A stretch of DNA of 52,659 nt from a virus. Taxonomy: Duplodnaviria > Caudoviricetes. The notes beneath the pieces are model-generated. The model made no database searches. It had not been told where the DNA came from and saw only the letters and a list, made by a program, of their open reading frames with translations. Within the stretch, counting starts at the first letter, position 1; every line of letters starts with the position of its first letter. Both the position numbers and the translations under genes were made by a program. The stretch lies in IMG/VR virus record IMGVR_UViG_3300020042_002183, positions 1-52,659 of that record. One strand, given 5' to 3'. This document shows, in pieces, positions 12,758 through 44,719 of this stretch.

Positions 12758-13300
12758 CTAGCCTTGAAAGATTGGCATAGGAACAGATTGGTCAAAATTG
12801 CCAAATCCTTCGCCTTCAACCTGACCCAATGACTTCCCAGAGCTATCGCGCCTTCCCTGAAGTTGCTCCACTTGAACGCGAACCTTGTCGGCCTCGTTCA
12901 TTGGTTCTTCATGGTGCATGTGCATCATGATGTCTTGGTAAACGTCCATAGGAAGTTTGCACAAGATCATCTCGTTGCATGCGATAAATCCAGTGTACTC
13001 ACCAGCTTTTACACGGTAGTTTTCGTATCCGGGATGTTCGTCCGTTTTCACAGGTACATACCCTTGACGAAACCGCTTTTCAATGGTGTCGTATGTATTG
13101 GTTGTTGATAGCCAGCAAAGATGCCATCCCGGTACATCGGGGGCTTTTGGCAGTGCGCTTTGGTTCCATTCATCGGTAAACATCTTGCGACGCTCGTTTG
13201 ACGAAATGAATTTTTCCTGCGGCGGTTCACGGCTTTCGTCCTGTGAAGAACGAGCTTCTCTACCACCAGCAGAAAGAGATTTTTTGAGACGGGATTCCAT
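12758..13300 (-). CDS. Conserved hypothetical head-morphogenesis protein
   Basis: 180 aa; PGWHLCWLS...GYVPV...MILCKLP, between scaffold and MCP. Confidence 0.7.
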   Translation of the reverse strand: MESRLKKSLSAGGREARSSQDESREPPQEKFISSNERRKMFTDEWNQSALPKAPDVPGWHLCWLSTTNTYDTIEKRFRQGYVPVKTDEHPGYENYRVKAGEYTGFIACNEMILCKLPMDVYQDIMMHMHHEEPMNEADKVRVQVEQLQGRRDSSGKSLGQVEGEGFGNFDQSVPMPIFQG

Positions 13301-14284: not shown

Positions 14285-14715
14285 AAGAAGGCTTTCATAG
14301 CTAGGGGATCACCAACAACCCGTGCGATAACTTCGTGATCGTTCAGGATCATGAACAAAGCAGGGTCTTCCATAACATCCTCACCGGGGACTTTCACCTC
14401 CCAACGGTCACCGCCCCACTTGGGGACTCGGATGTAGTCACCGACAGCGCACCACGAGCCTTCAGGCCACGGGAGCATCGTGTCGCGGTGTTTGAAAGCA
14501 AGAGGGCCAACCTCGACGACTTTCGCCACCATGTTGTTCCACTTCTCGGTTTCCTTGGTCTCCTCGACCAAAATAATCCCAGCACTAGTTACCTTCTTTT
14601 TGGTTCGGCGCAGTTGCACCAAAACTCGTCCACCAAGAGGCTTCGCACCGGGTTCTACGCTCGGGAATGCCCAAGCTAACTCAGCTTCGTCAGAAGCTAC
14701 CAATGTGTTACTCAT
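14281..14715 (-). CDS. groES: GroES-like co-chaperonin
   Basis: KPLGGRVLVQ...TSAGIIL...AKVVEVGP...VGD...ILNDHEVIA Cpn10 signature. Confidence 0.88.
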   Translation of the reverse strand: MSNTLVASDEAELAWAFPSVEPGAKPLGGRVLVQLRRTKKKVTSAGIILVEETKETEKWNNMVAKVVEVGPLAFKHRDTMLPWPEGSWCAVGDYIRVPKWGGDRWEVKVPGEDVMEDPALFMILNDHEVIARVVGDPLAMKAFL

Positions 14716-23500: not shown

Positions 23501-24295
23501 AGCAGGTGTCTCTCCTGCAATCGTCCGAGTCTTGAGATGCTTCAGATCCTTCTCAACACTGCCTGATGCAAAGTTGCCGCCCTTTGGCTTGACGACATAT
23601 TGTGGAGCCACTGGAGACAGCACCGATGCCAGTGCGCCTTGGCCCTCCACGCCCTTGGCGATCTGCTCTGCGGTCATGCGGCCCAAGCTCTTAGCGCCCT
23701 TGCCTGCCAGTCTTGCGGCGGCGTTGCCAGCCTTGACAGTGCCGTACAGGCCAGCATCAGCAGCCAAGTTGCCAACAAATTGAGCGGCGGCTCCCGTAGG
23801 GCTGTAGGTCAGATCCTTGCCGGGTAGCACCCTCTGGAAGTCCTCAGACGATGGCAGAAACGACCTCTCGCTTACGCCGGGGATCAGCATGCGGCCAAGG
23901 GTCTCGACATCACCGCCCAAACCGCCCACACCAGAGACTAAGCCACGAAAGGCTGACAGTGGTGCATTGGCCGAGGCTTCGCGGTCATTGAAGGCGCGTT
24001 TGCCCTTCATCTGGGGGTAGACACCGAATGCAGGCTGGGAGGCTTGGGATGCTTCGCGGAACGATGGCGCAGTAGCTGGGGGTTGCAATCCAGCCATGAA
24101 GCTCTTTAGATCTACGTCTTTTGGGTTGGACGGAGTTAAGCGAGAAAAGTCGTCGAATTCTTGACGGCGCTCGTCGGCGTAGAAGTCACGAAGCTGCTGC
24201 CTTTGCCGATCAAGCTCTTGCGGTGCTGGCTCAAGCTTCAGTTGTTTTTTGACCTGATCAAGCGTCAAGGTCTGTGGGGCACGAGGGTTGGGCAT
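17579..24295 (-). CDS. Giant polyvalent protein (PcfJ-like, EIQSDWHQ-type and ParB-like modules)
   Basis: 2238 aa; EGDTMGHCVGGY...IYSLRD...PHVTVEV; GGENYREILL...HVEEIQSDWHQKGR; GHEGRHR; modules separated by repeated linkers. Confidence 0.7.
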   Translation of the reverse strand: MPNPRAPQTLTLDQVKKQLKLEPAPQELDRQRQQLRDFYADERRQEFDDFSRLTPSNPKDVDLKSFMAGLQPPATAPSFREASQASQPAFGVYPQMKGKRAFNDREASANAPLSAFRGLVSGVGGLGGDVETLGRMLIPGVSERSFLPSSEDFQRVLPGKDLTYSPTGAAAQFVGNLAADAGLYGTVKAGNAAARLAGKGAKSLGRMTAEQIAKGVEGQGALASVLSPVAPQYVVKPKGGNFASGSVEKDLKHLKTRTIAGETPAERISKHEALLKDPSLNQDQLDRVRYQLDQTKGEAAIDKWIDSNLTNYVKKEMATPDDPVRLMIDRRYDEINEQFKKDLDRAERIRQRAAEEVDPRRKANLSREAEAAATDAFAQRDFANKYISNLPDEDLADYRNVPEYLAEKRTKAGFDESGVARSDPANMYEQRADDAIVSYRAGDIQAQPAKLAQAQDADRVLNDTKIAINNAFDKFLVSKNQPEGVVSALKNLPYKDKAAMIGGNFGKDFEDAYTNYMTIRGSMNDKLLKIALESPWITKVDPETPIYSSAIGGLNFGHVVDVLRQDVAAGRITPEQLNKVSMEQAVRRAADFDQEMAIRMRDTAIKQQEGFPVYKDYGDEGYRWIELTKPADLTDLPEGFRAEPYKSEYSEGVKIIGPDGKQAAAGDTLDEALKNMSETRLEDALKYEGDTMGHCVGGYCPDVLEGRSRIYSLRDAKGEPHVTVEVKPNQNPYPVSGEAFARLSPAEKAQYREHVMQWRRRNPDVEELTDENTAQALKEAGVQPQPDSILQIKGKGNAKPKDDYIPFVQDFVRSGQWSEVKDLRNTGLRPTSDAFNETEQAFLRDKGVELKPYIDPEETARYQQMFNPTPDAEPEFAQGGAVRISDNPDTMRMELGDRHFQIGGAVKAAKAGKGFYSAVDRAALGLKRPMGTGKEFMAEIKSTPGIKATELKGRKLADIEAMPKMTKDQFVKELEARPPVKIEEKVLGNPNQKEIDELADKLAYDKAVESARYYAERGDDINELAEENYLFNIKNNMEELREEARLSLIDDGSINHGIGRPSPRHEKFTIPGGENYREILLKMPAAKGEGFPGVAGHFGGEPNILASIRVSDRTGPNGEKILHVEEIQSDWHQKGRKQGYKEAYKSRFGEIDGQQMKVSDFIAQQGDEGIKWIEGKNAINRDLDLPELSGDSLVNVVTENGAPVYIKEARFSDITKMVDSHRRKVDDLEAQERQLFERSQQEKLPDAPFKKDWHELALRRVMQEAAEGGYDRVALTKGAEQADRYDLSKHVDAVIWERDPDGRITFTPEKDGMALTEPKTVSQGELSDHLGKEVAEKILNDQETSGALGGVDLQVGGEGMKSFYDKMLPDYLNKLGKQYGVQVDEIGIRSPDGRSDAAMKLGVTPQAYAAMSPDEKAIFHAKLDDLNAKPVHSLQVTPEMRQDINEKGLPLYQQIGVPVGTGAVGMEALEQPAMDDEAVRFSDNPDTMRMELEDKQFQFGGAVKAGKAGKAAKQAVRVPEKIVLSELPNAPSIIIPSKLGRVKEEVLQSKGQYGARRVERAADEIPNLERMYKEQAFREAFLGDNAKALMTMNPADFQRYAKELQDRSRSDIGPKAAELARQGDIDKRTVPTDEYIQHLQRVQGGFNEMPYLNISKEEQGLPLMPFISGHEGRHRSRAMAESGEPSSLVQLSPNSELRDFPRRSQEEYIEALRKELEMTDNMVLPEGFERPPIKLPDVYAMGGAVEGENDVGAPSPQNSASPAAGYAIGGAAKLGKAAKAAAKPSLVIKSKPGIIVSNLIDEEPDIAKRLGAEARAKRQAAADAEGKRQELARQTAPSVGYRQSTPQKPDPLVGTRFVNEPAFGLNPNDPFDPSKFKGGSGMVIPWDSQSRNVRTTQLSGVDLPNQIFDVTHGGIPYAFDTIHVNKGVAGSSGEEISKRVKTRADTAVKENIASGGTGELLHFPITMGYRAEDYALPYSEFSFDWINYKLMTGELTQKQADELSDMVKNYTPPEAKYKGKKPFAEFKGFTDPEGLNQIYTGEGLKVPSGELRKAIADRIVWQKGSQEKLGFNAEDLMNATTYEPLRGVDKGFIGSTVMRNTPGGMQLSPSAGKYPYDTNFSGEHLGRLEDNINVEALFHRTLNPIKRELMERENLKPYNKESLRNAAIGAIEKRNERISQPIDERFLDDYSDYITELKKPSEYKRGGNVKASNSYKKRASMSPLMKRFKTARQSPLNE

Positions 24296-32937: not shown

Positions 32938-33652
32938 TGTTGCCACCTCCAACTAAACCACGAGTCAATCCCTGAAGGACGGTTGAATTTCGGTCACCCT
33001 GAGTCTTGAACGAAGCCTCTTTGGCCTCCTTGGCCCACCAAGCCGCTTTGAATGCTCCCCAGCCCCGCAGGCAGCACTCCTTGATCATTGCGTCAACAGT
33101 CAGGTCAGTCTTATGGCATTCAGCCATCATTTGTTTCCAAGCTGTCTCAGTCAACGGCAGCTTCTTGGCCTTCCTGATCTCCAACCAATCACTCCACACC
33201 TTGGCATCAACGCCCGAAGGGCAGAGCACCGCAGGTGCTTTCTTCTGTGTCTTGGGTAATGTGTCTTGTGTCTTGGGTAATGTGTTATGTGTAGCATTGC
33301 GATCGGATTGCGTTGGCAATGCGTCCGCATCATCTTTTCCCTTATGCCACCTAGCCTTTGCGCTTTCGGATGCCTTGCGAGACTTTTCCCCTGTCTTTTC
33401 AATCTCCTTACTGATGCGCTCTTTCCACCATCCGTCCGCTGTACAAACGAAGAACTCGCGCAGTACGGACGTAATGCAATCGCTATGCGGACGCATGCGG
33501 ATCAGCTTGGAGATCTGATCGATGTCGTCAGGCAGGGGGCGCTCGTGAAGGTAGCACCAGTCGAGCATGCGCCGATAGGCGAGGTCTTCCAACGGGTCGA
33601 GGTGAGCCGTATGCGACTGGTAGTCGCCAATGTTGAACTGGTAGTAGTGCAT
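32915..33652 (-). CDS. Replication initiator, DUF1376/YdaU family
   Basis: MHYYQFNIGDYQSHTAHL...EDLAYRRMLD.CY..E.PLP N-terminus; W.DW...RKAKK..LT C-terminal domain. Confidence 0.88.
   Translation of the reverse strand: MHYYQFNIGDYQSHTAHLDPLEDLAYRRMLDWCYLHERPLPDDIDQISKLIRMRPHSDCITSVLREFFVCTADGWWKERISKEIEKTGEKSRKASESAKARWHKGKDDADALPTQSDRNATHNTLPKTQDTLPKTQKKAPAVLCPSGVDAKVWSDWLEIRKAKKLPLTETAWKQMMAECHKTDLTVDAMIKECCLRGWGAFKAAWWAKEAKEASFKTQGDRNSTVLQGLTRGLVGGGNNVKLLGN
33246..33287. repeat. 21-bp tandem repeat x2 inside initiator (candidate origin iterons)
   Basis: TGTGTCTTGGGTAATGTGTCT / TGTGTCTTGGGTAATGTGTTA in the linker region, as with lambda ori inside gene O. Confidence 0.6.
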
Positions 33653-33662
33653 ATCAACCTTA

Positions 33663-33739
33663 CTTCATAGGTACGCTTCACCGAAAGAAACATTGGCAGG
33701 ACGGTGAAGGATCGTCTTTTCGGGAGCTACCCTAGCCAA
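33663..33739 (-). ncRNA. Structured 5' leader of the replication initiator
   Basis: TTGGC/GCCAA closing stem, GGG-TAGCT-CCC and GACG-loop-CGTC hairpins; CTTCACCG complementary to downstream CGGTGAAG. Confidence 0.55.
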
Positions 33740-33752
33740 GTTCTAAATTATC

Positions 33753-33956
33753 TTACACCAAAAACTTATCAGGACGCAACTCGTGCCGCATGACCAAGCC
33801 CTGTGTCGCAAGCTCAATGCTGATTGCCAACGACTTGGATGCCCTACGCTTGCCATGGATCAGCAGGGAAATGTAGGTCGCAGTGATGCCGAGATGCTCT
33901 GCCATCTCAATCTTTGAACCCCGTGGCTCTGTTGCGAAATACTCTGCCAATGTCAT
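33753..33956 (-). CDS. Cro/YdaS-like HTH transcriptional regulator
   Basis: EMAEHLGITATYISLLIHGKRRAS...IELATQGLV.RHELRPD. Confidence 0.85.
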   Translation of the reverse strand: MTLAEYFATEPRGSKIEMAEHLGITATYISLLIHGKRRASKSLAISIELATQGLVMRHELRPDKFLV

Positions 33957-33969
33957 GCCGTCTCCTTGT

Positions 33970-34046
33970 TGGTTGCAGGGGGAGGATTTGAACCTCCGAC
34001 CCTTCGGGTATGAACCGAGTGCTCCACCAGACTGAGCTACCCTGCT
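33970..34046 (-). tRNA. tRNA-Met (anticodon CAT), CCA encoded
   Basis: AGCAGGG TA GCTC AGTCTGGTG GAGC A CTCGG TTCATAC CCGAA GGGTC GGAGG TTCAAAT CCTCC CCCTGCA A CCA; 77-nt cloverleaf. Confidence 0.92.
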
Positions 34047-34052
34047 GCCCTG

Positions 34053-34119
34053 ACTATAACATGGTTAAAAAGCAACATGGATAAAAATATTTAACTGTGT
34101 TTGATTTTTGTGGTGTAAT
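34053..34119. promoter_or_regulatory. Divergent promoter region with operator-like boxes
   Basis: Rightward TTAACT-17-TGTAAT (34091-34119); leftward extended -10 TGnTATAGT (34053-34061); AAC-N3-GTT boxes. Confidence 0.55.
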
Positions 34120-34152
34120 ACGTCTACGTCGATACGACGGCAAGGAGAAAAC

Positions 34153-34350
34153 ATGATGACCACGACACCGCTTGTGAACACAAGCATCGACATGGACGAC
34201 TTCAAGTCCTACCTCAACAGCGTAGACACGCTTCTCATCCTCACCAAGTCCAGCCGTGTTGATCCCATAGAGCTTGAAAAAGTCAGGGTAGCAGTAGCTC
34301 ACGACACGGCGTTCTTTTCCGAACTCATCAAACAAGCAGAGGCCGCATGA
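34153..34350 (+). CDS. Hypothetical protein
   Basis: ATG at 34153 after AAGGAG. Confidence 0.7.
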   Translation: MMTTTPLVNTSIDMDDFKSYLNSVDTLLILTKSSRVDPIELEKVRVAVAHDTAFFSELIKQAEAA

Positions 34351-34664
34351 TCCCACTACGAGCGAAATGGTTCAACACCAAAACGGGCATTGTCGGCATC
34401 GTGTATGCCCAAGATGAATTTGACCCAGAGATCAAAGAATTTTTTATCGGTGTTGCTCAAGGAATTCACGAGCCGATTGACATTGCAAACATCGCCAATG
34501 TTGGGGCACTGTTCCCCGAAGACATCGGCAACTTACTTTTTGGAATCACAGATGACGACACAAGCCCAGCAGGAATATCAGGAATGGCAGAACAACCCCA
34601 AGCTCCAGCAGGAGTACCAACAGTGGAGACTAAAAGACGACCTAGAAAATCTAAAGCGGATTGA
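34347..34664 (+). CDS. Hypothetical protein
   Basis: 105 aa; WFNTKTGIVGIV...FFIGVAQG..E..DI..IA..GA.FP. Confidence 0.7.
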   Translation: MIPLRAKWFNTKTGIVGIVYAQDEFDPEIKEFFIGVAQGIHEPIDIANIANVGALFPEDIGNLLFGITDDDTSPAGISGMAEQPQAPAGVPTVETKRRPRKSKAD

Positions 34665-34713
34665 CCCCAACTTTCAAAACCAGTTCAACCAAATTTTTGG
34701 AGCAGATAAATGA
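34552..34713 (+). CDS. Small hypothetical protein overlapping the previous gene's tail
   Basis: MTTQAQQEYQEWQNNPKLQQEYQQW...; stop overlaps the SSB start (ATGA). Confidence 0.5.
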   Translation: MTTQAQQEYQEWQNNPKLQQEYQQWRLKDDLENLKRIDPNFQNQFNQIFGADK

Positions 34714-35357
34714 TTCTCGAAGATACAGGCAGTAATTTTAAACCCGTCCCCGCAGGAGCGCACCTTGCTCGTTGCTATCGCATCATTGACATGGGGACAC
34801 AAGAAACCAGCTTTGAGGGCGTTACGGACTACAAGCGCAAGCTCAAATTCGTGTGGGAAGTCCATGGCGAAGAAGAGGATGGAACCCCCCTCAAAACAGA
34901 AAAGAACGAGCCGTTTATCATCACCAAGGACTACACGAATACTTGGGGTGAAAAGGGCACTCTGCGCAAGGATTTGCAATCTTGGCGTGGCAAAGAGTTC
35001 ACCAACGAAGAGCAACGCCGCTTTGACATCAAGAATGTGCTCGACAAGTGGTGCATGATCAATGTCACCCACAAGGCAGGAAAGAGCGCTGGCAAGGTTT
35101 ACGCCAATGTCACCGCCCTCACCCCCGTTCCCTCGCGGATCAAGTCCATGGGGCTTCCTGCGGCCTTCAACAAGGCTCAAATTTTTACCATGTCTGAGCC
35201 TGACATGGTAATGTTTGAAACCTTCTCTGAGTGGCTGAAAAAACAAATTATGAGCAGCCCTGAGTGGAAAACCCTTCAGAACAGTCCAGCCAAAGAGTCC
35301 AAGGAGTCCAAAGCCTCCAGCGGGTTTGACGACATGGACGACGACATTCCGTTCTGA
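34710..35357 (+). CDS. ssb: Phage single-stranded DNA-binding protein
   Basis: PAGAHLARCYRIIDMGTQ OB-type N-terminus; acidic tail DDMDDDIPF. Confidence 0.8.
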   Translation: MILEDTGSNFKPVPAGAHLARCYRIIDMGTQETSFEGVTDYKRKLKFVWEVHGEEEDGTPLKTEKNEPFIITKDYTNTWGEKGTLRKDLQSWRGKEFTNEEQRRFDIKNVLDKWCMINVTHKAGKSAGKVYANVTALTPVPSRIKSMGLPAAFNKAQIFTMSEPDMVMFETFSEWLKKQIMSSPEWKTLQNSPAKESKESKASSGFDDMDDDIPF

Positions 35358-35365
35358 GGTGGCGT

Positions 35366-35689
35366 ATGAGCGATTTCAAAAAACTGTTTCGACGCGATGC
35401 GATGGATACCTCAATATCTGCCGCCGCCAGCATCTACCCAGATTTGAAAAAGCTCCAATTGGAGGTGCTGGTTTTTGCCAAGCACCGTCCAAATGGCTTT
35501 ACTGATGAGCAGATGAACGAGTTCTTTGAGACCCACCGATCCACCTTCAGGGCAAGGCGCTCTGAATTGGTGGACAAGGGGCTTGTTGTCGATAGCGGCA
35601 AGCGCTGGGCAATGACAAATGGCAGGAATGCCACTGTGTGGATGTGCAGAGAATTTGCAGACCCACAACTAACTCTTGAAGGACTTTGA
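35366..35689 (+). CDS. Winged-helix DNA-binding protein
   Basis: GFTDEQM...STFRARRSELVDKGLVVDSG.R....GR.A.VW. Confidence 0.7.
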   Translation: MSDFKKLFRRDAMDTSISAAASIYPDLKKLQLEVLVFAKHRPNGFTDEQMNEFFETHRSTFRARRSELVDKGLVVDSGKRWAMTNGRNATVWMCREFADPQLTLEGL

Positions 35690-35973
35690 TGAAATACCTC
35701 ATCTTGCTATTGGCTTTAACAGGATGCGCTTCTGGGTCGTCTCAAAATGCCAGCATGGAGCAATCCAACCATATCTCCACCAACGGGAACCAAACCCTGC
35801 TCTTAGACAGACAAGTGCAGGAGATGACTCGCAACGAGGTGATCATGGCGATCCACGATTGCGAAGGAAACGGTCTTCGGGCTGTTGTCCAAACCACCAA
35901 GCGTCGCATCAACGGCACGGCATCTGACATTGTCTTCAACGTCACTTGCGCCCCTCGTCTTCGCTTTTTTTAA
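35686..35973 (+). CDS. Lipoprotein
   Basis: MMKYLILLLALTGC signal peptide with LTGC lipobox. Confidence 0.8.
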   Translation: MMKYLILLLALTGCASGSSQNASMEQSNHISTNGNQTLLLDRQVQEMTRNEVIMAIHDCEGNGLRAVVQTTKRRINGTASDIVFNVTCAPRLRFF

Positions 35974-35982
35974 GGAGGCATC

Positions 35983-36291
35983 ATGAAGAAAAAAAAATTG
36001 TCTTACTTAAAAGTTGATATTGATTACATTGATCCCGTAACAATGGAAAAAGTTTGTTCTTTTAATCAATGTATTGATAAATTTACCGTGGAGTTGCAAG
36101 AAGAGATAACAACATATCCAAGATGGAAAGATGGACTACCTCTTGTAAAGACTTCATATTTTCACGCTTGTTCTGATTGTGGTCGTAAACACAAATCCAG
36201 AGCAGACAAAATAAAAAGTACAAGCAGTTTTTATGAAGCCGCCGCTGGTGGTGGAAATGAATTAAACAAAATGGAAAGAGAATCAAAATGA
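35983..36291 (+). CDS. AT-rich hypothetical protein with CxxC
   Basis: AAGGAGG RBS; CSDCGR; low GC. Confidence 0.7.
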   Translation: MKKKKLSYLKVDIDYIDPVTMEKVCSFNQCIDKFTVELQEEITTYPRWKDGLPLVKTSYFHACSDCGRKHKSRADKIKSTSSFYEAAAGGGNELNKMERESK

Positions 36292-37061
36292 CCACACTTG
36301 TTGCAAGAGCATCGGAGTCCCTGCATTGGTACAACCGTGATGGCTCACCCCAGTACACGGTCAAGGCCAAGAACGGGAGTAATCGCTCCACAACCCTGCG
36401 TGACGCTCGAACTATGAGCTTGGTTCCTTCGGTAACCACCATCATCAAGAGCGCCGCCAGCCCCGGCCTAGAGGCTTGGAAGCTCAACCAGATGCTTCTT
36501 GCCGCCCTGACCCTTCCACGCGCTCCTGACGAGGCTGAGACCTCGTTTGTCCAGCGAGTCATTGCTGACTCCAAGGAACACGCCAAGATGGCCGCAGAGC
36601 GTGGAACCAAGGTGCATGAGGCGGTTGAGTCCTTCTACAACGGGGTCATGCAGGCAGACATGATGGAGTATCAGGTCGGTGTCTACACCAAGCTTGAGGA
36701 CACCTACGGCATCACAAAGTTCGATTGTGAGAAGTCGTTTGCCCATGAGCTTGGGTTTGGCGGCAAGGTGGACTTGTTCTCCAGCACGGCGTTTGAGGGC
36801 AAGGGGCTGGTGCTGGACATCAAGAGCAAGGAGTTCACCGATCCCGCCAAGGTGGATGCCTACGACGAGCACATGATGCAGTTGTCGGCTTATCGCGTGG
36901 GGCTGGGCATACCAGACGCAGTGACAGCCAACGTATTTGTCTCGGTGCTACAACCCGGCCTTGTCGTGGTCAAGGAATGGACACCCGAGGAAGCAAACCG
37001 TGGCTGGACTATGTTCCAGTCCCTGCTCAACTTTTGGCAAGCCAAAAACCAACACAAGTAA
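36288..37061 (+). CDS. PD-(D/E)XK exonuclease (Cas4/RecB-like)
   Basis: PSVTTII, RGTKVH, EKSF, GGKVDL, LDIKSK, QLSAY motifs. Confidence 0.85.
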   Translation: MTTLVARASESLHWYNRDGSPQYTVKAKNGSNRSTTLRDARTMSLVPSVTTIIKSAASPGLEAWKLNQMLLAALTLPRAPDEAETSFVQRVIADSKEHAKMAAERGTKVHEAVESFYNGVMQADMMEYQVGVYTKLEDTYGITKFDCEKSFAHELGFGGKVDLFSSTAFEGKGLVLDIKSKEFTDPAKVDAYDEHMMQLSAYRVGLGIPDAVTANVFVSVLQPGLVVVKEWTPEEANRGWTMFQSLLNFWQAKNQHK

Positions 37062-37068
37062 GGAATCT

Positions 37069-37221
37069 ATGTTTGGAGCACTCATCGGATTCGGCTGCTT
37101 TGCAGCGTGGCTCACCCACATCTTCACTTGCTTTTCACAAGGCTTGTGGGGGTTTCTTGTTGCTGGCGCAATCATGTTTCCAATTGGAATCTTGCACGGC
37201 ATTTATCTTTGGTTCAAGTGA
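37069..37221 (+). CDS. Small two-TM membrane protein
   Basis: MFGALIGFGCFAAWLTHIFTCF...GFLVAGAIMFPIGILHGIYLWF. Confidence 0.7.
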   Translation: MFGALIGFGCFAAWLTHIFTCFSQGLWGFLVAGAIMFPIGILHGIYLWFK

Positions 37222-37232
37222 AAGGAAAAATT

Positions 37233-37784
37233 ATGAAATTCGGAGAAGCAATTACTTTATTGAATGCTGGTCATCCAGTAACTCGCCATGGCTGGAATGG
37301 GAAAGGCATGTTCTTGATTCGTGCAGGGGGCTACATGGTTGAGGCTGACGAGGTAAAGCCAAACGGGCCTATCAATGCAGAGTTCTTAAAACGCCATGGC
37401 TTGACCCACTTGGAAATTTTGCCGCACATTGACATGTGGACAGTCAACTCAGAAGGCAGGCAGGCTTACCTACCCGGCTGGTTGGCATCGCAATCAGACA
37501 TGCTTGCTGATGACTGGATGGAGTACAAAGAGCCTGTTGAAGAAGAACCCCATCGGATTACCTTATCGAGTGAACGAGTTCAGGCTCTGAAATTGGCTGG
37601 ATTTTGGAATGATTCAGTTAAACGGGATCAGATGATCAGAAAATATGCTGACTTGGTTAGAGAGTTAAAAGAGCATGAAGAGGAATCTGTGCCTACCAAA
37701 AAGCCAAAAAAACTTCACTGGACTCAAACCGCAAAAGGCAGAAAAATCATGGCAAACCGCAAACCACGAGGGTCTAAGAAATGA
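37233..37784 (+). CDS. tad2: Tad2/DUF2829 anti-defence sponge with C-terminal scaffold-like segment and basic tail
   Basis: MKFGEAI..L..G..V.R.GWNGKGMFL...PHIDM...PGWLASQSDMLADDW DUF2829 signature; ATG at 37233 after AGGA. Confidence 0.85.
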   Translation: MKFGEAITLLNAGHPVTRHGWNGKGMFLIRAGGYMVEADEVKPNGPINAEFLKRHGLTHLEILPHIDMWTVNSEGRQAYLPGWLASQSDMLADDWMEYKEPVEEEPHRITLSSERVQALKLAGFWNDSVKRDQMIRKYADLVRELKEHEEESVPTKKPKKLHWTQTAKGRKIMANRKPRGSKK

Positions 37785-38011
37785 CCAGCCCATGCCTGAC
37801 TGCTGACAAGGTCAGCGAAGTCTTTCGCAAGCTTCATCTTGAGGAGAACTACAACTTCCTCCAAGAAGACCTGCAAAAGCTTGCTGATGCCTTTGTAATG
37901 GCCGCAGAGCCTGCAATAACCGCCGCAGAGCGGGACAAGTGCGTGACCTTTGTGCGTTCTCTGAACACTCAGGTTGCGCAATCCTTAAAGGGATTCAAAG
38001 GCGAGGTCTAA
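37781..38011 (+). CDS. Hypothetical protein
   Basis: 76 aa, ATGA coupling to tad2. Confidence 0.7.
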   Translation: MTSPCLTADKVSEVFRKLHLEENYNFLQEDLQKLADAFVMAAEPAITAAERDKCVTFVRSLNTQVAQSLKGFKGEV

Positions 38012-38037
38012 AAAAAACCCTCCCCAAAAGGGAAGGG
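38010..38037 (-). terminator. Rho-independent terminator at the convergence of late and early operons
   Basis: Minus strand CCCTTCCC-TTTTG-GGGAGGG followed by T8. Confidence 0.7.
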
Positions 38038-38113
38038 CCGTGAAAGCTCCGTCTGTCGTGGCAACTGCGGGAGCTACTGGGGGAGACTACCCAGTATTTG
38101 GGCGCTCACAGGG

Positions 38114-39562
38114 TTATCGCCCTGTGGGCGTTTGATTTGCCTGACTCAATGGGCTGGATTGGCGCATGTAGTCGATGATCAGGTTTGCCATGGGAGCGGC
38201 CATAGCCAGTCCGCCACCAACCACTCGCGTCACTGGGTGCGGAATAATAGCTGCGGCAGAACCCAGCGCACCCAAACCAGAGATGCCTGCGCCCAGCATG
38301 TCGCCGCGCCTGTACCTCTCGGCAGCATCGTTGGCCTCAGTAATCGCTCCAAAGCCTCCCAAAGCGCCTGTGGCGGCTGGGCCGATCACGGGGATGTCCA
38401 TGGCCCTGCGACCCATATTGATCGCCTGACGGGCCAACGAAGGCCTCTGCTGTGGCAATGCTCCCGATGGGGCTTGGGGCATGGGAGCGCCCATGGAAGG
38501 CTCACCCGGACGAATGCTGCCGATGTCTGGGACCATTGGTGGTGGGCGTGGGCCACTCATAGGCCGTGGCCCTGCCGTGGGGCGTGGCTCAACGGTGGGG
38601 TAAAGAACACCAGAGGCCGAAGAGGTCATTCCCGGCGCTTGGGCCAGTATTTGCCTAACCTGCGGGTTGGTGGCCCTCATCTCGTTGGCAACCGCCGCCC
38701 TTCGGGAAGTCTCGGTTTGGTAGCCCTCTTGACGAGCACGACCCGTGGTTCCCAAAGTATCGCCCTGACCGCCCTGCAAGATGCGGGTGGACTGAGCAGA
38801 TGGCCCAGAGTTCAAGGTCGGCTCTAGAGGCGAAATGGAAGCAACTGAGGGCGTTGACAATCCACCTGAAGGGTTTGGCAACGCGCCAGCAGGCGCTTTG
38901 TTTGCCAATGCTTGTGCAATTTTTTCAGCCGTTCTGTCCAACCTATTGTTGTTCATGCGACTGCGGGTATCCATGTAGGTGCTTGCAGTTGCGCCTAAGC
39001 CAGCGCCACCCATTTGCATAAGTTGCATGCGATCTTGTGCAGCCTGCCGCGCCATGTCTCCTTCAGAAACCACAACAGATCCGTTACCCTCGGAAGTTGC
39101 GGCTGCTGGTGGTTGCTCTTCACTCATCAACACAGAAGGAATATTGTCGTTGGTGAATTTGCCAATTCGGTCAATGTAATTCAGTGCATTTGGCCCCAAA
39201 TCTGCATAGTCATTGGTTTCAAAGAACTTGAGATCGGGGCCACTGTGATAGCCAGCCAATACCCTTATGGGGTCGGCTTTTATGCGTGGGTCTTCCGAAA
39301 GTTGCCGTATCAAAAGCAAGCCACCACGGATGTTGTCGTCCTCGTCGTAAGGATCGACCTTCAGCCCCTTGGCGGTAGCTGGCATAAGTTGCATGGGGCC
39401 GATTGCACCCTTCTCGGACGTTCTGTCCTTGAACATGTTCTCTGCCATGGCGATGCTAAGAGCAAAGTCTGGGTTTACCCCATACGCAGGCGCTCTTTCA
39501 AGAATCTTTCGAGCAACACGCGCTTGGTTCTCATCAAGCATGGATTTTGGTTCATCAGCCAT
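38114..39562 (-). CDS. Virion ejection protein with N-terminal lytic transglycosylase (SLT) domain
   Basis: IAMAEN...SEKGAIGPMQLMPATA...DNIRGG...LAGYHSG SLT motifs. Confidence 0.85.
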   Translation of the reverse strand: MADEPKSMLDENQARVARKILERAPAYGVNPDFALSIAMAENMFKDRTSEKGAIGPMQLMPATAKGLKVDPYDEDDNIRGGLLLIRQLSEDPRIKADPIRVLAGYHSGPDLKFFETNDYADLGPNALNYIDRIGKFTNDNIPSVLMSEEQPPAAATSEGNGSVVVSEGDMARQAAQDRMQLMQMGGAGLGATASTYMDTRSRMNNNRLDRTAEKIAQALANKAPAGALPNPSGGLSTPSVASISPLEPTLNSGPSAQSTRILQGGQGDTLGTTGRARQEGYQTETSRRAAVANEMRATNPQVRQILAQAPGMTSSASGVLYPTVEPRPTAGPRPMSGPRPPPMVPDIGSIRPGEPSMGAPMPQAPSGALPQQRPSLARQAINMGRRAMDIPVIGPAATGALGGFGAITEANDAAERYRRGDMLGAGISGLGALGSAAAIIPHPVTRVVGGGLAMAAPMANLIIDYMRQSSPLSQANQTPTGR

Positions 39563-39564
39563 GT

Positions 39565-41157
39565 TTATTGCCTCGGTTTTTGTTTGGATTTTTCAATGGC
39601 TTCTCTAACTTTATCCAATTCCGTTCTTTTGTCAGCAGAGCCGCTACTTGGGGAGCCGCCTGCACTTGGAGGCGCATTCTTTTTGGGCGCGTCTGGCGGA
39701 TACACAATTGATGAGATCCGCTTCCTGTAGGCGGAAAACAAGTCATCGAACTCTTGCGTAGCCTCAAAATCTTCAAACTGCATTGTCCCCTTGAGCTTCC
39801 TTGCAACTGCTCGATCAAAGTTGGCCTTCTCTTTCATGAACGCCAATTTTTTAAGGTACGCATCGTAAGGGTCTTTTGCGTTTGGCCCCATTTGATTGAC
39901 CATGCTTTGCTCAAAGTTAGATACAGATGTGCCAGAACCCAAACCTTGGCGTTGTTGAAATTGCCACTGAGCTTCAATTTGCGCCAGTTGAGCAAGGGCG
40001 CTAAGTGTTGCTTCGTCGGTCACATATTGTTGGGCAACTTTTCTAAACGAAGGAATACTGATGGACAAAGAGCCAATCCTAATGCCCTCATCAGCCACCG
40101 ACCCTATTGCTGAAAGCATGTCTGGCTTTTCGAGCACACCCAAAACATCGCGCAACTTGGGGTTTGCCTTTATGAGAGCTTCGGCTCTATCAAACAATGG
40201 CAACAGTGCCAACGAAGCATCGCCAGTCTGCTTGTACTTTGTTGTTGCGTCCACGCTTGCTGCGGCTGATTTTTCAAGAATCTGTTTTTTCCGCGCCGCT
40301 TCCGCTTCAATATCACCTTTTGTAATTGGCGCAGGTGATACAGCAGGCGCTCCAGCGCTTAACGGCGGAGTAATTTTTGTGCCGTCTTGGGGCGGAGTTT
40401 GTCCCGTTGGAGTTGCGCCAATTACCGATGAGGGAGCATCGCCGCTTGGAAGTGGTTTGGTTGCAGCGTCAACGATAGACCAATATGTTTTCCAGTCTTT
40501 GGCTGCCTTTGCTGCATCAAGCGCTGTTGCTTCTGATTTTGTAAAGTCAACAGCGCCAGCTTTTTTGCCATCGGGCCAAATAATGTTGCGCGTCACTGGG
40601 GCTTCGCCGGGTGTGGCGTTCCACACAGGCGGAGACTTGCTGGTATCCCAATAACCTCCAGCCTGCACCTTCATTTGCTTATCTTTTGCATCCAAATACT
40701 TGTACAGCAATTCGCCTTTATCTGGATACTGCGAAGCAACTTTTGCAGCTAATTCAGGTGTGATTTTAGAAAATCCTGCTGGAAACCTTTGCCCACCCAC
40801 CTCTATTGTGTCGCCGCTAAAAAGCTGGTTCACCATTTGAGAACCTCGTGTAGCTTGGCGTTGACCCAACTCACCCTGAGCCAATTGCAAGCGAAGTGCA
40901 GCCCTCTCTCTGGCCGTCTTTTCCTCAGCAGTAGCAGCTTCGGTGTACCCCTTGGCGGCGTTGCCAAGAGACTCGCCAAACGAGCCAGTCTGGGTAGGCG
41001 CAAGAAAGCCCTGCGCAATCGCCATCAATTGAGGATCGAAAGGCATCTTCCTTGACTTTAGCGATTGGCTCAAGTCTTTGTACTGATCTTTGATCTCAAG
41101 GATCAAGTCCTGATCTTCTGGATCAGGCGAGTAGAGTGATGGTAGTTTTTCTGCCAT
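39565..41157 (-). CDS. Internal virion / ejection protein
   Basis: 530 aa helical; AQGFLAPTQTGSFGESLGNAA, GTSVSNFE; within the ejection cluster. Confidence 0.65.
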   Translation of the reverse strand: MAEKLPSLYSPDPEDQDLILEIKDQYKDLSQSLKSRKMPFDPQLMAIAQGFLAPTQTGSFGESLGNAAKGYTEAATAEEKTARERAALRLQLAQGELGQRQATRGSQMVNQLFSGDTIEVGGQRFPAGFSKITPELAAKVASQYPDKGELLYKYLDAKDKQMKVQAGGYWDTSKSPPVWNATPGEAPVTRNIIWPDGKKAGAVDFTKSEATALDAAKAAKDWKTYWSIVDAATKPLPSGDAPSSVIGATPTGQTPPQDGTKITPPLSAGAPAVSPAPITKGDIEAEAARKKQILEKSAAASVDATTKYKQTGDASLALLPLFDRAEALIKANPKLRDVLGVLEKPDMLSAIGSVADEGIRIGSLSISIPSFRKVAQQYVTDEATLSALAQLAQIEAQWQFQQRQGLGSGTSVSNFEQSMVNQMGPNAKDPYDAYLKKLAFMKEKANFDRAVARKLKGTMQFEDFEATQEFDDLFSAYRKRISSIVYPPDAPKKNAPPSAGGSPSSGSADKRTELDKVREAIEKSKQKPRQ

Positions 41158-41167
41158 GATTTATTCC

Positions 41168-42244
41168 TTAGGAATCCCACCAGTCAACATAGTTGTCGTC
41201 GGTCTCATCGTTGCCATAATCAATTGAAATTGGCGGTAAATCCCCAACAGGGTAATTTCGGTCAGGGCTGTACACTGGATAGCTAATAGCTCCACCACCA
41301 TAGCCGCCACCGTAGCCACCACCACCGCTACCACCGCCAATGCTGCCTATCAATTTACCCAGCCAATCCATGCCGCCACCCACAAGGCTTCTACCTAAAC
41401 CATCTTTTCCTGAGCCGCCAAACAAAGCGCCAAGCAATGCAGAGCCGCCTGTAATTTGCGACAAAGGTGAGTTGGAGTAAACGCCAGCCTTTGGCCCCAA
41501 GAAAGTCTCTGTCGTGCTCATTGGCACGTTGTAGCCCCGCATGAGGGCCGAGGCGTTCATGGCGTTTTGTAGCGGCGCATTGATACGAGCCTGCTCCAGT
41601 GCCTGCTGTTGAGCGCCAGCCCCCAGTTGAGCGTTTATGCCAGCCAAACCCAAGTCTTGTTGCGCTTTTGCCAAAGAACCTTGAACTTGAGCGGCCTGAG
41701 TCTTTTGCTGGGCATTTGCCAGTGCCGCTTGCAGTGCTTGGCTGTACCCAGATGACAAGGCTCCCTGCTGCTGACCAGTCAGGTTGGTTTGGATGTCCTC
41801 CAAAGTCTGACCAGTTGCATTCGCGTATCGTTGACCACCCAAACCACCAGAACCCACAAACGCGCCCTTGAGTTGAGGGATGAGGCTTCTGTTGACGTTT
41901 TTGTTGGTCAGTCGAGCCATCTCGTCCACCACATTGCTGGTGTACGGATTAAGCATGGTTTGAACGCCCTCTGGGGTAATGCCAGCCGCGCCTTGAGAGG
42001 CCGTGTTAATGGCAGAGGTCAGCGCAGGCTTGTAGGAGCCAGCCACATTCGGAAGATTGGCAAATGCCTGCTGCTGCAATGGACTAAAACCTGCAACCAA
42101 CTGGCTTGCAGGCAGACCCATTTGCTGTATGCCTGTCTTAGACAGGGCCGACATATAGTCGTTGTAATAGCTTGGCGCAGCGGAACTGGTCGAGGTCGTC
42201 GTTCTTACGTCTGGGAGCGCTCCACCTTGGAATATTGATGCCAT
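41168..42244 (-). CDS. DNA pilot / ejection protein
   Basis: Gln/Gly/Ala rich; VAGFSPLQQQAF, LNPYTSNVV, GAFVGSGGLGGQR. Confidence 0.65.
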   Translation of the reverse strand: MASIFQGGALPDVRTTTSTSSAAPSYYNDYMSALSKTGIQQMGLPASQLVAGFSPLQQQAFANLPNVAGSYKPALTSAINTASQGAAGITPEGVQTMLNPYTSNVVDEMARLTNKNVNRSLIPQLKGAFVGSGGLGGQRYANATGQTLEDIQTNLTGQQQGALSSGYSQALQAALANAQQKTQAAQVQGSLAKAQQDLGLAGINAQLGAGAQQQALEQARINAPLQNAMNASALMRGYNVPMSTTETFLGPKAGVYSNSPLSQITGGSALLGALFGGSGKDGLGRSLVGGGMDWLGKLIGSIGGGSGGGGYGGGYGGGAISYPVYSPDRNYPVGDLPPISIDYGNDETDDNYVDWWDS

Positions 42245-42256
42245 GGTCTTTTTTCC

Positions 42257-44719
42257 TTATGCTGTTACATAGTCCAACGGGGACTTTTTGGCTGGGGGCG
42301 GCAAGTCTTTTGGCTTTGTAGATCTTGCGCGTTCACGGATACTGTGCATCATGTCGTAGAGTTTATCTGTTCCAGCCTTGGTTGAGCCGTTGCCAAGTGC
42401 GGAAACCACATCAGCAGGGAAGACAAACTCGCCGTCAGCCAGCCATGCGGGAATGTCATCAGATTGGCCGTCACCCTCACCTGCGACATGCTTGCCGTGT
42501 TTAAAGTTCTCCCGCCCTTGACTGACAGTTGGCAAGACTCCGCTGGCGTTCAGGGGCATGGTTTTGCCGCCACGAGCCATCAGGGGGGATGCCATGATCG
42601 CTCCACCTCTTGCTGCCAACGCCGTTGGTTCAAAATCTTGAGAGTAAGGCGATGGTGAATATGGGCTGAGTGAATCCGATTCTACGGAGTCTGCTTTTGC
42701 CATCTCAACTGGTTGTCCGTAGTTGTAGTACGGGTTTTCAGCAACAAGGGGATCAACAGGATTCACGGATTCGTTTGAATCTCGATAAGTCTCTGGGCTG
42801 AATTGTTTGGTCATCATTTTTGCCAAGTCACCTTCTCCGCCTTGGCTTGTTGCTTTTTGGACTGCATAAAGCTGAGAGAGTGGGTCGATGAACTTATCTT
42901 TGGACAACCCAATGCTTAATAATTCATCCCCTAAAGGATTGTCTGTGGGCAAAGCGCCCTTTTGCGTACCAAGCTGTGCGCCAGCACCGTTAAAAATACC
43001 GGGCAACGATCCGCTTGATCTTGAGTTGCCTGTTGCGCCGCTTGTCCCTCCAGTGTTTTCTTCTCCGTAGAACCCAGAAGAGTCAGATCCTCCGCCAATA
43101 GAGGGATCGGGGGCGGTATAAATACCAGAACCCCCCACCGATGGGCTTCCAGATCCGCTAAATCCTAGACCAGACAGCACCGAGTCAAGCGCGTTGGCAA
43201 TACTGCTTAAATTTGAAGACTCGGGAACTCCTGTAACGGAATTAACTGCGTTAGAGATTTCGCCGCTGATTGCCCTGCCAGCGCCGCTTACATTCATTCC
43301 CAAACCAACAAGCCCCGGACTTACCCCTAAAGAATTTGCAATAGCGCTGGTCAACGCAGATGTTGCCGCACTGGATGCAGCTTTTCCGTAGTTTCCTTCA
43401 ATCATCCCCGAGACAACACCCATCGGGACACCGAAGTGATTTGCAACCATAGACAACCCAGCGCCAAGTGCTGTCTGTCCTATGGTTGATTTTCCAGAGA
43501 TTAAGCCGTCAGCAAGCTTGGCAGCATTCATCATTAAACTAAAACCGGGCGGAGCTATTGCGCCTACGATAGTTGGGAGATATTGAGTCAAATAGTGGTT
43601 AGCCGTCTGCGACGCAAGAGCTTGATCTATCGTCTGACCCGGAAAGCCGGGGACATCCTTCCCACCATAGCCCATTGCCTGCATTGTTGCCAAGTCGGCA
43701 TAGCTAACCCCCGGACTATGCTGTGGGCCAGTGGCCCCTAAGCCGAAAGCGGTTCCAAACCCTTCGGTGACTGCCATCATTGCGTCAAGCGGGTTCATGC
43801 CCGTGATTGAAGCCAAGGTATTAGCCGCACTGACCGCCTGAGTGTTGGTTAATGGGCCGTCGTAGGCTTGGCTTATTGGGGCTGTGCTGGGTGCAGCAGG
43901 GGTCAGGCCAGTACCAACCGTATCGGCTAACCCCGAAGTAAACCCTCTGCCGTCCCCCAAATTAGCGCCTGCTGCTGCGTAGCCAGCAGAGGCATCAATA
44001 GAATCAATATCATTTACATCCGCAGAGGGATCAGGGGAAGAACCAAAACTACGGCTACCGCCAGTCGTATTGGCTAACCCCGAAGTGAACCCCGTGCCGT
44101 CTCCAACAGCGGCTCCTTGAGCCGCGTCAGCAGCAGCCGCTGCGGCTGCATCAGCGGCGTTAGAGGCGGTTTCGCCGGGGTCGCTTACGCCGTTGGAGTC
44201 AGTGTTAGAACCACCACCACTATCGCTGCTGCTGCTGTCACCACCACCGCTACCGCCATCACTGCCACCGTCACCGCCGTCACCCTGATACGAGGGGACA
44301 TTCTTAGGGCCGTAGTGATCGTGCTCATCCACGCCAGAGTTATGGATGTCCATCCTCTCCAAAAACTCGGCCTGCTCATCCGTCACATAGACAAGACGAG
44401 CCATGGGGTGATCTTCAGACGACTTCCACTTTGCAGGAACGTTTTTAGCAGCTTCTCCGCTGCCCGTTGTGTTTGACACTTCTACATCGTCAGTAGCAAA
44501 AAACGGCAGTCCAGACGGGCCATCAAAAGTTGTCAGGGGCTTTCCGCTTTTCTCGCCCTGCTTTTTCAGCAGTTCGATCTCTTCCTCAGTGATGTACGCC
44601 AGATGCGTCTGCAAGCCATTGTTTGGCTCCCAGTACCTTGGGGCGGATTTGATCTTGTGGTCGCTGTACCACTGCGAACTTGTCCAAGAACCGTTTTTCA
44701 AATTCGATGTATTTTTCAT
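42257..44719 (-). CDS. Ejection-type protein with two LAYIT-like modules and a C-terminal GDGQSDDIPA..GEFV domain
   Basis: 820 aa; LAYITEEEIELLK..GPSGLPFF and LVYVTDEQAEFL..GPKNVPSY; VAGEGDGQSDDIPAWLADGEFVFPADVV. Confidence 0.65.
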   Translation of the reverse strand: MKNTSNLKNGSWTSSQWYSDHKIKSAPRYWEPNNGLQTHLAYITEEEIELLKKQGEKSGKPLTTFDGPSGLPFFATDDVEVSNTTGSGEAAKNVPAKWKSSEDHPMARLVYVTDEQAEFLERMDIHNSGVDEHDHYGPKNVPSYQGDGGDGGSDGGSGGGDSSSSDSGGGSNTDSNGVSDPGETASNAADAAAAAAADAAQGAAVGDGTGFTSGLANTTGGSRSFGSSPDPSADVNDIDSIDASAGYAAAGANLGDGRGFTSGLADTVGTGLTPAAPSTAPISQAYDGPLTNTQAVSAANTLASITGMNPLDAMMAVTEGFGTAFGLGATGPQHSPGVSYADLATMQAMGYGGKDVPGFPGQTIDQALASQTANHYLTQYLPTIVGAIAPPGFSLMMNAAKLADGLISGKSTIGQTALGAGLSMVANHFGVPMGVVSGMIEGNYGKAASSAATSALTSAIANSLGVSPGLVGLGMNVSGAGRAISGEISNAVNSVTGVPESSNLSSIANALDSVLSGLGFSGSGSPSVGGSGIYTAPDPSIGGGSDSSGFYGEENTGGTSGATGNSRSSGSLPGIFNGAGAQLGTQKGALPTDNPLGDELLSIGLSKDKFIDPLSQLYAVQKATSQGGEGDLAKMMTKQFSPETYRDSNESVNPVDPLVAENPYYNYGQPVEMAKADSVESDSLSPYSPSPYSQDFEPTALAARGGAIMASPLMARGGKTMPLNASGVLPTVSQGRENFKHGKHVAGEGDGQSDDIPAWLADGEFVFPADVVSALGNGSTKAGTDKLYDMMHSIRERARSTKPKDLPPPAKKSPLDYVTA

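Follow-up and report, generated by a model that had tools for sequence, protein, structure and literature searches.

Why would a small phage protein with a counter-defense-type domain also carry a segment related to the end of a scaffold? The question is raised by a gene encoding a protein of 183 amino acids (aa) at positions 37233 to 37784 (+ strand) of the virus record IMGVR_UViG_3300020042_002183, which is complete at 52,659 bp, bears direct terminal repeats, was analyzed at its full length, and is called the window here. A sequence-only reading had described this open reading frame (ORF) as a DUF2829 (Tad2) sponge to which a scaffold C terminus, copied from the same phage, and a basic tail are appended, and had proposed that the added segment targets the sponge to capsids. 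The ORF with its DUF2829 domain, the scaffold-like segment after it, and the basic tail after the segment were all present as described. The translation comprised module A, a Tad2-like domain of a 95-aa subtype with a long central insertion, assigned from Pfam, PDB chains, and subtype comparison (residues 1 to 97; 37233 to 37523); an acidic linker delimited by the alignment of alleles (residues 98 to 107; 37524 to 37553); module B, a scaffold-type helix-loop-helix recognized by homology, with predicted helices at residues 113 to 122 and 128 to 151 (residues 108 to 151; 37554 to 37685); a second linker; and module C, an invariant basic tail delimited by alignment and predicted by AlphaFold2 (AF2) to contain a beta-hairpin of HWTQ and KIMA (residues 156 to 183; 37698 to 37781).

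The answer that we favor, with a probability of about 35%, is that scaffold mimicry by module B loads the DNA-bound sponge into capsids and that the payload travels with the genome.

Module B and the end of the scaffold-like protein

The part of module B homologous to the scaffold end (37554 to 37649, + strand) and its counterpart, residues 285 to 316 of a 326-aa scaffold-like protein (13337 to 13432, − strand), encode exactly the two peptides that had been compared in the sequence-only reading, and a direct count confirmed 17 identities in 32 positions. By BLASTP, residues 109 to 139 of the 183-aa protein aligned without gaps to residues 286 to 316 of the 326-aa protein (17/31 identical, 26/31 positive, E = 9e-10). 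When each C-terminal piece was compared by tblastn with the six-frame translation of the window, no pair other than the reciprocal one was significant (E = 8e-9 and 3e-9; next matches, 0.075 to 0.88), and the window therefore holds no third copy. Scored without gaps (BLOSUM62), the 32-mer reached 96 against the six-frame window, a value attained by none of 300 shuffles (mean, 26.7; standard deviation, 4.1; maximum, 40).

The claim that the segment is a copy of the phage's own scaffold C terminus proved overstated. The two segments agreed at 57 of 96 DNA positions and at only 12 of 32 third codon positions, which argues for an old duplication. Module B of the accessory gene (the 183-aa gene and its orthologs, described below) was 97, 83, and 66% identical to module B in orthologous genes of other phages and 66% identical to that of some foreign scaffolds, compared with 52% for the scaffold of its own phage. 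Recent derivation from the resident scaffold, by duplication or gene conversion, was considered and ruled out by these identities (52% versus 66 to 97%) and by the divergence at third codon positions. By the same measures, module B is an old paralog of the scaffold-end helix-loop-helix and not a recent copy. No DNA repeats were found within either segment, each being scanned separately without comparison of one with the other.

Conservation of the shared segment in relatives was borne out, since both full-length scaffold ORFs and orthologous small genes bear module B. A profile of modules B and C was searched against 1.84 billion representative proteins, and 278 proteins matched at the threshold of E ≤ 1e-3. 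Among the 150 matches listed, all 81 proteins of 300 to 380 aa had module B within 20 residues of the C terminus; another 68 were shorter than 300 aa, with 4 containing both modules, 22 module C only, and 42 module B only, and many of the B-only proteins were truncated scaffold ends. One match, the 1,689-aa eukaryote-like repeat protein P0137, aligned six times with just the first helix of module B and was set aside as chance or convergence. A sample of 80 loci chosen by capsid protein contained 41 ORFs with module B at the C terminus, all at loci with capsid identities of 65 to 93%; 38 of these ORFs were full length (302 to 344 aa) and lay upstream of the capsid gene, and the remaining 3 were cut by the contig end. 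At 25 of 27 loci from the clade in which capsid identity is about 43%, the homolog ended in a different variant of the same helix-loop-helix. Across 45 sequences from the accessory gene and scaffolds alike, a Gly column was invariant and two Ala columns and a Trp column were conserved in at least 90%. From this distribution, module B is a C-terminal hallmark of the large scaffold-like family of the clade and is not peculiar to this genome.

Scaffold-like protein and head module

The 326-aa protein (13304 to 14284, − strand) is encoded between the portal and major capsid protein genes. On the − strand, the order was portal (846 aa), ORFs of 48 and 61 aa, a GroES-like gene, the 326-aa gene, ORFs of 180 and 199 aa, and the major capsid protein gene (304 aa; 11205 to 12119, − strand; Pfam PF25209, E = 1.1e-10), whose product is the presumed partner of module B. 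The same main order of head genes was found in the uncultured record MW202545.1 and in Caulobacter phage RLK. By capsid protein, the closest cultured relatives were Caulobacter phages RLK, RW, KcrB, and GB2A (77% identity), and MW202545.1 was nearer (88%). An AF2 model built from 42 homologs (predicted local distance difference test [pLDDT] score, 82.7) showed an acidic disordered N-terminal part, long helices at residues 62 to 144 and 148 to 176, a small helical domain, a disordered linker at residues 261 to 281, and a confident C-terminal strand-helix-turn-helix (helices 290 to 298 and 305 to 325) with a basic last helix. The architecture is thus elongated and helical, with a flexible linker and a C-terminal helix-loop-helix, as in a scaffold.

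Database comparisons were less informative. A PDB profile search with the 42 scaffold-like proteins returned coiled-coil noise only, and a Foldseek search of PDB with the 326-aa protein found nothing at E ≤ 0.001. Matches in BFVD included entries named "scaffolding protein" from rank 9 on (E = 3e-3; template modeling score, 0.21), and ESM Atlas gave a weak lead to PF09306 (0.87; 14% of members). For the sequence-only assignment of 13304 to 14284 as the scaffold gene, then, position, predicted architecture, and the C-terminal helix-loop-helix were supportive, and a match to a named scaffold family was lacking; the product is called scaffold-like here, an identification drawn from position and modeled architecture.

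Several further observations concern the head module. The capsid protein family was large (7,230 proteins at E ≤ 1e-10 among 8,000 candidates scored), and the 120 members listed were 88 to 94% identical. The capsid protein was 88% identical to those of three sampled genomes (G001, G005, and G006), and the adjacent scaffold-like proteins were just 41 to 48% identical; two C-terminal subtypes of scaffold-like protein, ending in ..RYA and ..NF/QF, are paired with an almost unchanged capsid protein. The GroES/Cpn10-like gene (14281 to 14715, − strand; PF00166, E = 1.7e-7) kept its position between the portal and scaffold-like genes in MW202545.1 and in G014. The scaffold-like gene is separated from the capsid gene by the two conserved ORFs at 12134 to 12733 (199 aa) and 12758 to 13300 (180 aa), both on the − strand and matching only PHROGs of "unknown function." No prohead protease was recognized in the head module with Pfam or PHROGs. 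The portal gene adjoins a 2,238-aa ORF (17579 to 24295, − strand) that may encode a giant virion or ejected protein and whose sole Pfam match was a short PcfJ-like stretch (E = 3.3e-6). In G023 (63.4 kb), the same scaffold-end match occurred twice, at 4883 to 5059 and 60678 to 60854, near both ends of the record, and the duplicate ends are probably long terminal redundancy from assembly.

Predicted binding of module B to the capsid protein

A predicted complex with the capsid protein was one of the checks suggested in the sequence-only reading. The capsid protein was modeled from an alignment of 64 sequences together with residues 100 to 150 of the 183-aa protein (45 module B segments); the sequences returned by the capsid search were about 90% identical and unfit for a diverse alignment, and capsid-sampled loci were used instead. 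The complex reached an ipSAE of 0.39 (runs, 0.39, 0.00, and 0.40), compared with 0.00 for the best of three controls, with the runs agreeing in at least 0% of contacts and a partner pLDDT of at least 40. In calibration, 58 of 80 solved complexes passed the mark, as did 2 of 110 mismatched pairs; among these, just 7 of the 80 solved complexes and both of the passing mismatches had values of 0.60 or under. These counts are only rough with custom alignments, and likeness to solved scaffold-coat complexes could also contribute to the score. The prediction lends weak support to binding of module B to the capsid protein and raises the odds of such binding a little.

The invariant basic tail

Module C had the consensus KKPHWTQT..GKKIMA.RK. 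In 15 aligned tails, KK.HWTQT..G and the following A and R were invariant and the His, Thr, and Pro codons varied synonymously, and selection on module C therefore acts at the protein level. The Shine-Dalgarno sequence of the next gene (GAGG/AGGA) lies inside the last codons of the tail; together with the overlap between the two genes, it may account for the conserved "RG" and not for HWTQT. In the AF2 model, module C formed a beta-hairpin (residues 162 to 165 and 171 to 174; pLDDT, 74 to 82) with Lys and Arg on both flanks.

No DNA-binding or other family matched module C in Pfam, PHROGs, or ESM Atlas, the last of which gave no usable match for residues 104 to 183. Nor was there any family for module B, module C, or the helix-type small proteins described below in Pfam (E up to 1) or PHROGs. 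In six sister proteins bearing module B (P0140, P0176, P0204, P0209, P0230, and P0154), module C was replaced by Lys/Arg stretches with GRP cores, which we take to resemble AT-hooks, and this replacement suggests that module C binds nucleic acid. The representative search also returned P0269, a 131-aa protein with two tandem LHWTQTPEG...R..W motifs resembling module C and with no module B, Tad2-like domain, gp49_66 domain, or significant Pfam match; the tail may exist as a small self-standing unit and be more widespread.

The Tad2-like domain

The Pfam family PF11195 ("Tad2-like") matched residues 1 to 97 over profile positions 1 to 72 of 73, with E = 1.8e-19 and 70.4 bits, well above the curated cutoff of 25 bits. 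Solved chains that matched module A included SptTad2 (8wjd, E = 3.1e-11), 8kbi (E = 2.1e-10), AcrIIA7 (9kzr, E = 1.7e-9), and Tad2 (8v3e, E = 6.2e-7); these Tad2 and AcrIIA7 matches were 88 to 158 aa long, and none aligned past residue 97 of the 183-aa protein. In HgmTad2, glycocyclic ADP-ribose (gcADPR) is contacted by W21, N22, G23, W87, L88, S90, T92, and D93, and the mutants W21A/N22A and S90A/T92A/D93A fail to bind, according to the available text of the structural report (10.1101/2023.11.15.567273). In a phmmer alignment with 8kbi, seven of the eight contacts were identical in module A (W21, N22, G23, W83, L84, S86, and D89) and the eighth, T92, was replaced by S88, a mapping that includes an inferred one-residue offset in the chain numbering. 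The sequence-only assignment of this domain thus held for both family and ligand residues, and on this evidence module A is a nucleotide-sponge-type domain with an intact gcADPR-type pocket.

The second ligand site was different. The cyclic dinucleotide contacts of the HgmTad2 insertion domain, R31, S47, F70, and N85, aligned to A31, P43, H65, and P81, so that none of the four was kept; the alignment is uncertain in this region, and these contacts define the HgmTad2 subtype only and not the family. The cyclic dinucleotide specificity of HgmTad2 cannot be assumed for module A. Because DUF2829 proteins also include AcrIIA7, which is reported in the available text of PMC13133391 to bind or act on tracrRNA, "Tad2-like" is the safe name for this domain. 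AF2 modeled the Tad2-like domain of the 183-aa protein with low confidence (mean pLDDT, 62).

Three Tad2-like subtypes (95, 75, and 68 aa) were found joined to module C; they were at most 59% identical and differed in the central insertion, and the 75-aa subtype was nearest to an unfused Tad2-like gene of MW202545.1 (68%). Among the alleles of the window, P0010, P0012, and P0197, the first 27 and last 15 residues were near-identical, and three different central insertions lay between them. In HgmTad2, the central insertion is the cyclic dinucleotide-binding part, and the pattern looks like swapping of the specificity region.

One apparent full-length relative, from Ruegeria phage 45A6 (84% coverage), was rejected: the alignment crosses a TGA into the next ORF, and neither module B nor module C is present. 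In this phage (L003, 2851 to 3576), the Tad2-like ORF ends at the TGA and the next annotated ORF begins one codon on in the same frame, an arrangement that could be read-through or merely tight packing.

A syntenic accessory gene with exchangeable N termini

The sequence-only reading had treated the protein as a fusion of Tad2 with a scaffold end. This view had to be revised, as the fusion partner was a preexisting syntenic small gene whose invariant part is the basic tail. Eleven proteins matched residues 100 to 183 in a search, and 16 loci were located by scanning viral contigs. A Tad2-like domain with modules B and C was present in the window, P0003, and P0004; with half of module B and module C in P0008, L007, and L008; and with module C only in P0009, P0010, P0012, L009, and L010. 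In P0011 and P0165, a PF13876 (gp49_66) domain preceded module C. The commoner form of the gene, encoding 80 to 143 aa, consisted of a short amphipathic helix and an acidic linker, with or without module B, followed by module C (P0005 to P0007 and L011 to L022). The 183-aa gene is thus the Tad2-carrying allele of a syntenic accessory gene in which module C is constant, module B is optional, and the N terminus is swapped. A W-M-E junction (residues 95 to 97, TGG ATG GAR), located just before the acidic linker, was common to the Tad2-type and three helix-type alleles. Fused forms occurred in several clusters and contigs, with P0004, for example, on 15 contigs. Three Tad2-like subtypes and PF13876 were all in frame with the same tail, which argues that the fusions are selected.

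The conserved neighborhood consisted of genes for a 215-aa protein, a 95-aa protein, and a PD-(D/E)XK exonuclease, a small hydrophobic ORF, the tail-bearing gene, and a 76-aa gene. In the window, the exonuclease of the PD-(D/E)XK type, which belongs to the same + strand cassette, is encoded at 36288 to 37061 (phrog_298 exonuclease, E = 3.6e-11; Pfam PF12705, weak) and was supported by synteny. The small hydrophobic ORF (about 52 aa; 37062 to 37221, + strand) lies immediately 5′ of the 183-aa gene and was kept in several relatives. An AAGGA Shine-Dalgarno sequence precedes the ATG of the 183-aa gene by 8 to 9 nt, and its stop overlaps the ATG of the 76-aa gene (ATGA; 37781 to 38011, + strand), itself assigned by synteny. 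Among relatives' loci where the 76-aa gene was present, it was directly 3′ of the tail-bearing gene in 10 of 14 and farther downstream in the other 4.

The accessory gene is sporadic in the clade. At the syntenic place in MW202545.1 (L005, 908 to 1740), a gp49_66-like gene with a different basic tail was followed by an unfused, N-terminally extended Tad2-like gene, and the locus resembles a small genomic island whose accessory genes vary.

Proposed capsid loading and its alternatives

According to the reading that we favor, module B would take the capsid protein site used by the scaffold C terminus, leading to coassembly of the 183-aa protein into procapsids, and the basic tail would bind nucleic acid and hold the protein with the packaged DNA once the scaffold leaves. 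The capsid would then carry the sponge or, with other alleles, a gp49_66 domain or the helix alone, and the payload would enter the next cell with the DNA, before phage gene expression. In a broader form, about which we are more doubtful, a freshwater phage clade of wide occurrence would possess its own cargo-loading system, in which module B, as a portable scaffold mimic, and module C, as a DNA-binding tail, bring interchangeable payloads (three Tad2-like subtypes and gp49_66) into the capsid. In that event, no immune-signal sponge would have been seen packaged before, nor any cargo tag that mimics a scaffold and is encoded by the phage itself.

Several findings weigh against capsid loading. 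Module B is internal in the 183-aa protein, with 44 residues after it, and terminal in scaffolds. The 326-aa protein belongs to no named scaffold family (no Pfam match; phrog_28737, "unknown function"), and one of the three complex runs scored 0.00. Module B of the accessory gene did not match the scaffold subtype of its own genome in any of the three genomes holding both a full module B and a scaffold (the window, G005, and G006) and so does not track it; in G006, for instance, the scaffold is of the FVL../..NF type and the accessory module B is not. Of the 16 loci, 4 had all of module B, 4 had half of it, and 8 had none, whereas module C was present in all 16; module B is therefore dispensable in orthologs, and the core function of the gene does not need it. 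A second gene with module B or C was found in none of 19 capsid-sampled long records, 16 of which had the scaffold module B only, and Caulobacter phage RLK and MW202545.1 likewise had the scaffold copy and no accessory B/C gene. The few dozen sponge molecules that could be packaged may be too few against a signaling system. In addition, the + strand cassette contains an exonuclease and adjoins a primosomal/replication gene, a setting that also fits an intracellular DNA-related role.

Such a role is the substance of one alternative, which we consider somewhat unlikely: modules B and C would form a small nucleic acid-binding unit of a replication or recombination cassette, the protein would act on DNA or RNA of the phage or the host within the cytoplasm, and the Tad2-like domain would be a sponge held on the phage genome or a substitute for the oligomerizing N-terminal helix. 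The likeness of module B to the scaffold end would then reflect a shared small fold and not shared capsid binding, and the match of its first helix to the repeat in the eukaryote-like P0137 is consistent with this. Synteny with the phrog_298 exonuclease near the primosomal/replication gene and the AT-hook-like tails standing in for module C also favor it, as does the report of tracrRNA binding by the DUF2829 protein AcrIIA7 (available text of PMC13133391). Module C, furthermore, is invariant although the capsid proteins are 40% and the scaffolds 23% identical, which fits a universal partner such as nucleic acid. However, outside the accessory gene, module B was at the extreme C terminus in all 81 scaffold-sized proteins among the matches listed, and the extreme C terminus is the site of the capsid-binding element in studied scaffolds. 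The capsid complex prediction, above all three controls, is weak evidence in the same direction, and no DNA-binding Pfam family matched module B or C.

Could the fusion instead carry no targeting meaning? Recombination at TGG ATG GAR in an accessory hot spot might have placed a Tad2-like gene in front of the 3′ portion of a resident small gene; the tail would then retain the function of that gene, or keep its translation coupled with that of the gene downstream, and the sponge would work on its own. The W-M-E junction in both allele types, the stop overlapping the next ATG with the GAGG/AGGA Shine-Dalgarno sequence in the last tail codons, the unfused Tad2-like and gp49_66-like genes at the same place in MW202545.1, and the optional nature of module B all accord with such an origin. 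This explanation nevertheless appears unlikely, given that each of three Tad2-like subtypes and PF13876 is in frame with the tail, that the invariant HWTQT lies upstream of any ribosome-binding site and its synonymous sites vary, and that fused forms recur in several clusters and contigs, including the 15 with P0004. A decoy or assembly modulator, also raised in the sequence-only reading, is quite improbable. The small protein would compete with the scaffold for the capsid protein site, as SaPI1 CpmB does through a shared C terminus (available text of PMC5644958), and would tune the timing or size of assembly or hide the capsid protein from sensing by the host, with the helix or a tetrameric Tad2-like domain serving for oligomerization. 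The helix-type alleles do resemble a mini-scaffold (helix, acidic patch, and module B), and the capsid complex prediction gives this explanation the same weak support. Many alleles, however, have no module B or half of it, the invariant basic tail is left without a role, and a gene that is sporadic in the clade is no component of normal assembly.

Tad2 and other signal sponges are taken to work once synthesized in the infected cell. If the favored capsid-loading reading is correct, a capsid-borne sponge would act before any phage gene expression, changing the view of when Thoeris or CBASS is evaded. Should the helix-loop-helix bind the capsid protein, it would provide a ready-made natural tag with which to load proteins into HK97-fold capsids. 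Independently of packaging, the locus revealed two short, portable, strongly conserved modules, the scaffold-type helix-loop-helix and the KKPHWTQT..GKKIMA tail, that are shuffled among scaffolds, small helix proteins, and counter-defense-type domains; the invariant tail, being without a known family, deserves a binding partner.

Neighboring features

Between the convergent 76-aa and SLT-domain genes, a sequence scan found a terminator-like GC-rich hairpin with a T-run (38016 to 38039, − strand). The convergent block beyond it (38114 to 44719, − strand) encodes an SLT-domain protein (482 aa) and contains ORFs of 530 and 358 aa, the latter with a weak match to a "DNA ejection protein" PHROG (E = 2.6e-5); the products of this block are likely internal or ejected virion proteins. 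A promoter scan of 33500 to 38300 found 1 site compared with 3.6 expected and was uninformative on timing.

Comparison with known systems

Literature searches for Tad2 with scaffolding protein returned only unrelated papers, with no description of such a fusion, and those for DUF2829 with mass spectrometry and virion returned none. A 2025 preprint (10.1101/2025.08.24.671296) does not refer to C-terminal extensions, to the capsid, or to the virion, and the only "fusion" in it is an expression tag; supplementary files might list domain architectures. Compared with the DUF2829 sponges SPO1 Tad2, HgmTad2 (AcrIIA7 type), and SptTad2, the 183-aa protein adds 86 residues containing modules B and C.

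The nearest precedent for scaffold mimicry is CpmB of SaPI1, which, according to the available text of PMC5644958, binds the 80alpha capsid protein at the same site as the phage scaffold through a C terminus shared with it. The case described here is alike in that a small nonscaffold protein also shares, by sequence, the C-terminal end of the scaffold. CpmB has no sequence similarity to the 183-aa protein, however, and is satellite encoded, has a terminal helix-and-hook (RIIK), and alters capsid size; the present gene belongs to the phage itself, in a complete genome of 52.7 kb, and the helix-loop-helix is internal (residues 108 to 151 of 183) and accompanied by a basic tail and a counter-defense-type domain.

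The helix-loop-helix of the P22 scaffold binds coat protein, and both the P22 scaffold and the scaffold-like protein of the window end in a helix-turn-helix with a basic second helix. There was no sequence match to the P22 family, Pfam PF09306. Cargo fused to part of the P22 scaffold is loaded into P22 capsids, as stated in the available text of PMC9962691, whereas the case here would be natural and not engineered cargo loading. Encapsulin cargo-loading peptides are short tags that dock cargo inside an HK97-fold shell; they differ in being terminal, in having another sequence, and in coming from a bacterial compartment rather than a virus.

Packaged counter-defense proteins are themselves known. 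T4 IPI* is one that has a capsid-targeting sequence, and P1 DarA and Hdf are among the proteins loaded into heads at assembly and injected to block host defense (available text of PMC12810830). Like the 183-aa protein, the T4 and P1 proteins are small, and they are often basic. In T4, the signal is N-terminal, attaches to the scaffold core, and is removed by the prohead protease; nothing comparable was seen in the 183-aa protein, the N terminus of which is the Tad2-like domain itself. To our knowledge, no sponge-type protein is known to be packaged. The Tad2-like domain and scaffold mimicry are thus each known already, and what is new here is their combination, together with a portable module B on several payloads and an invariant tail that belongs to no family.

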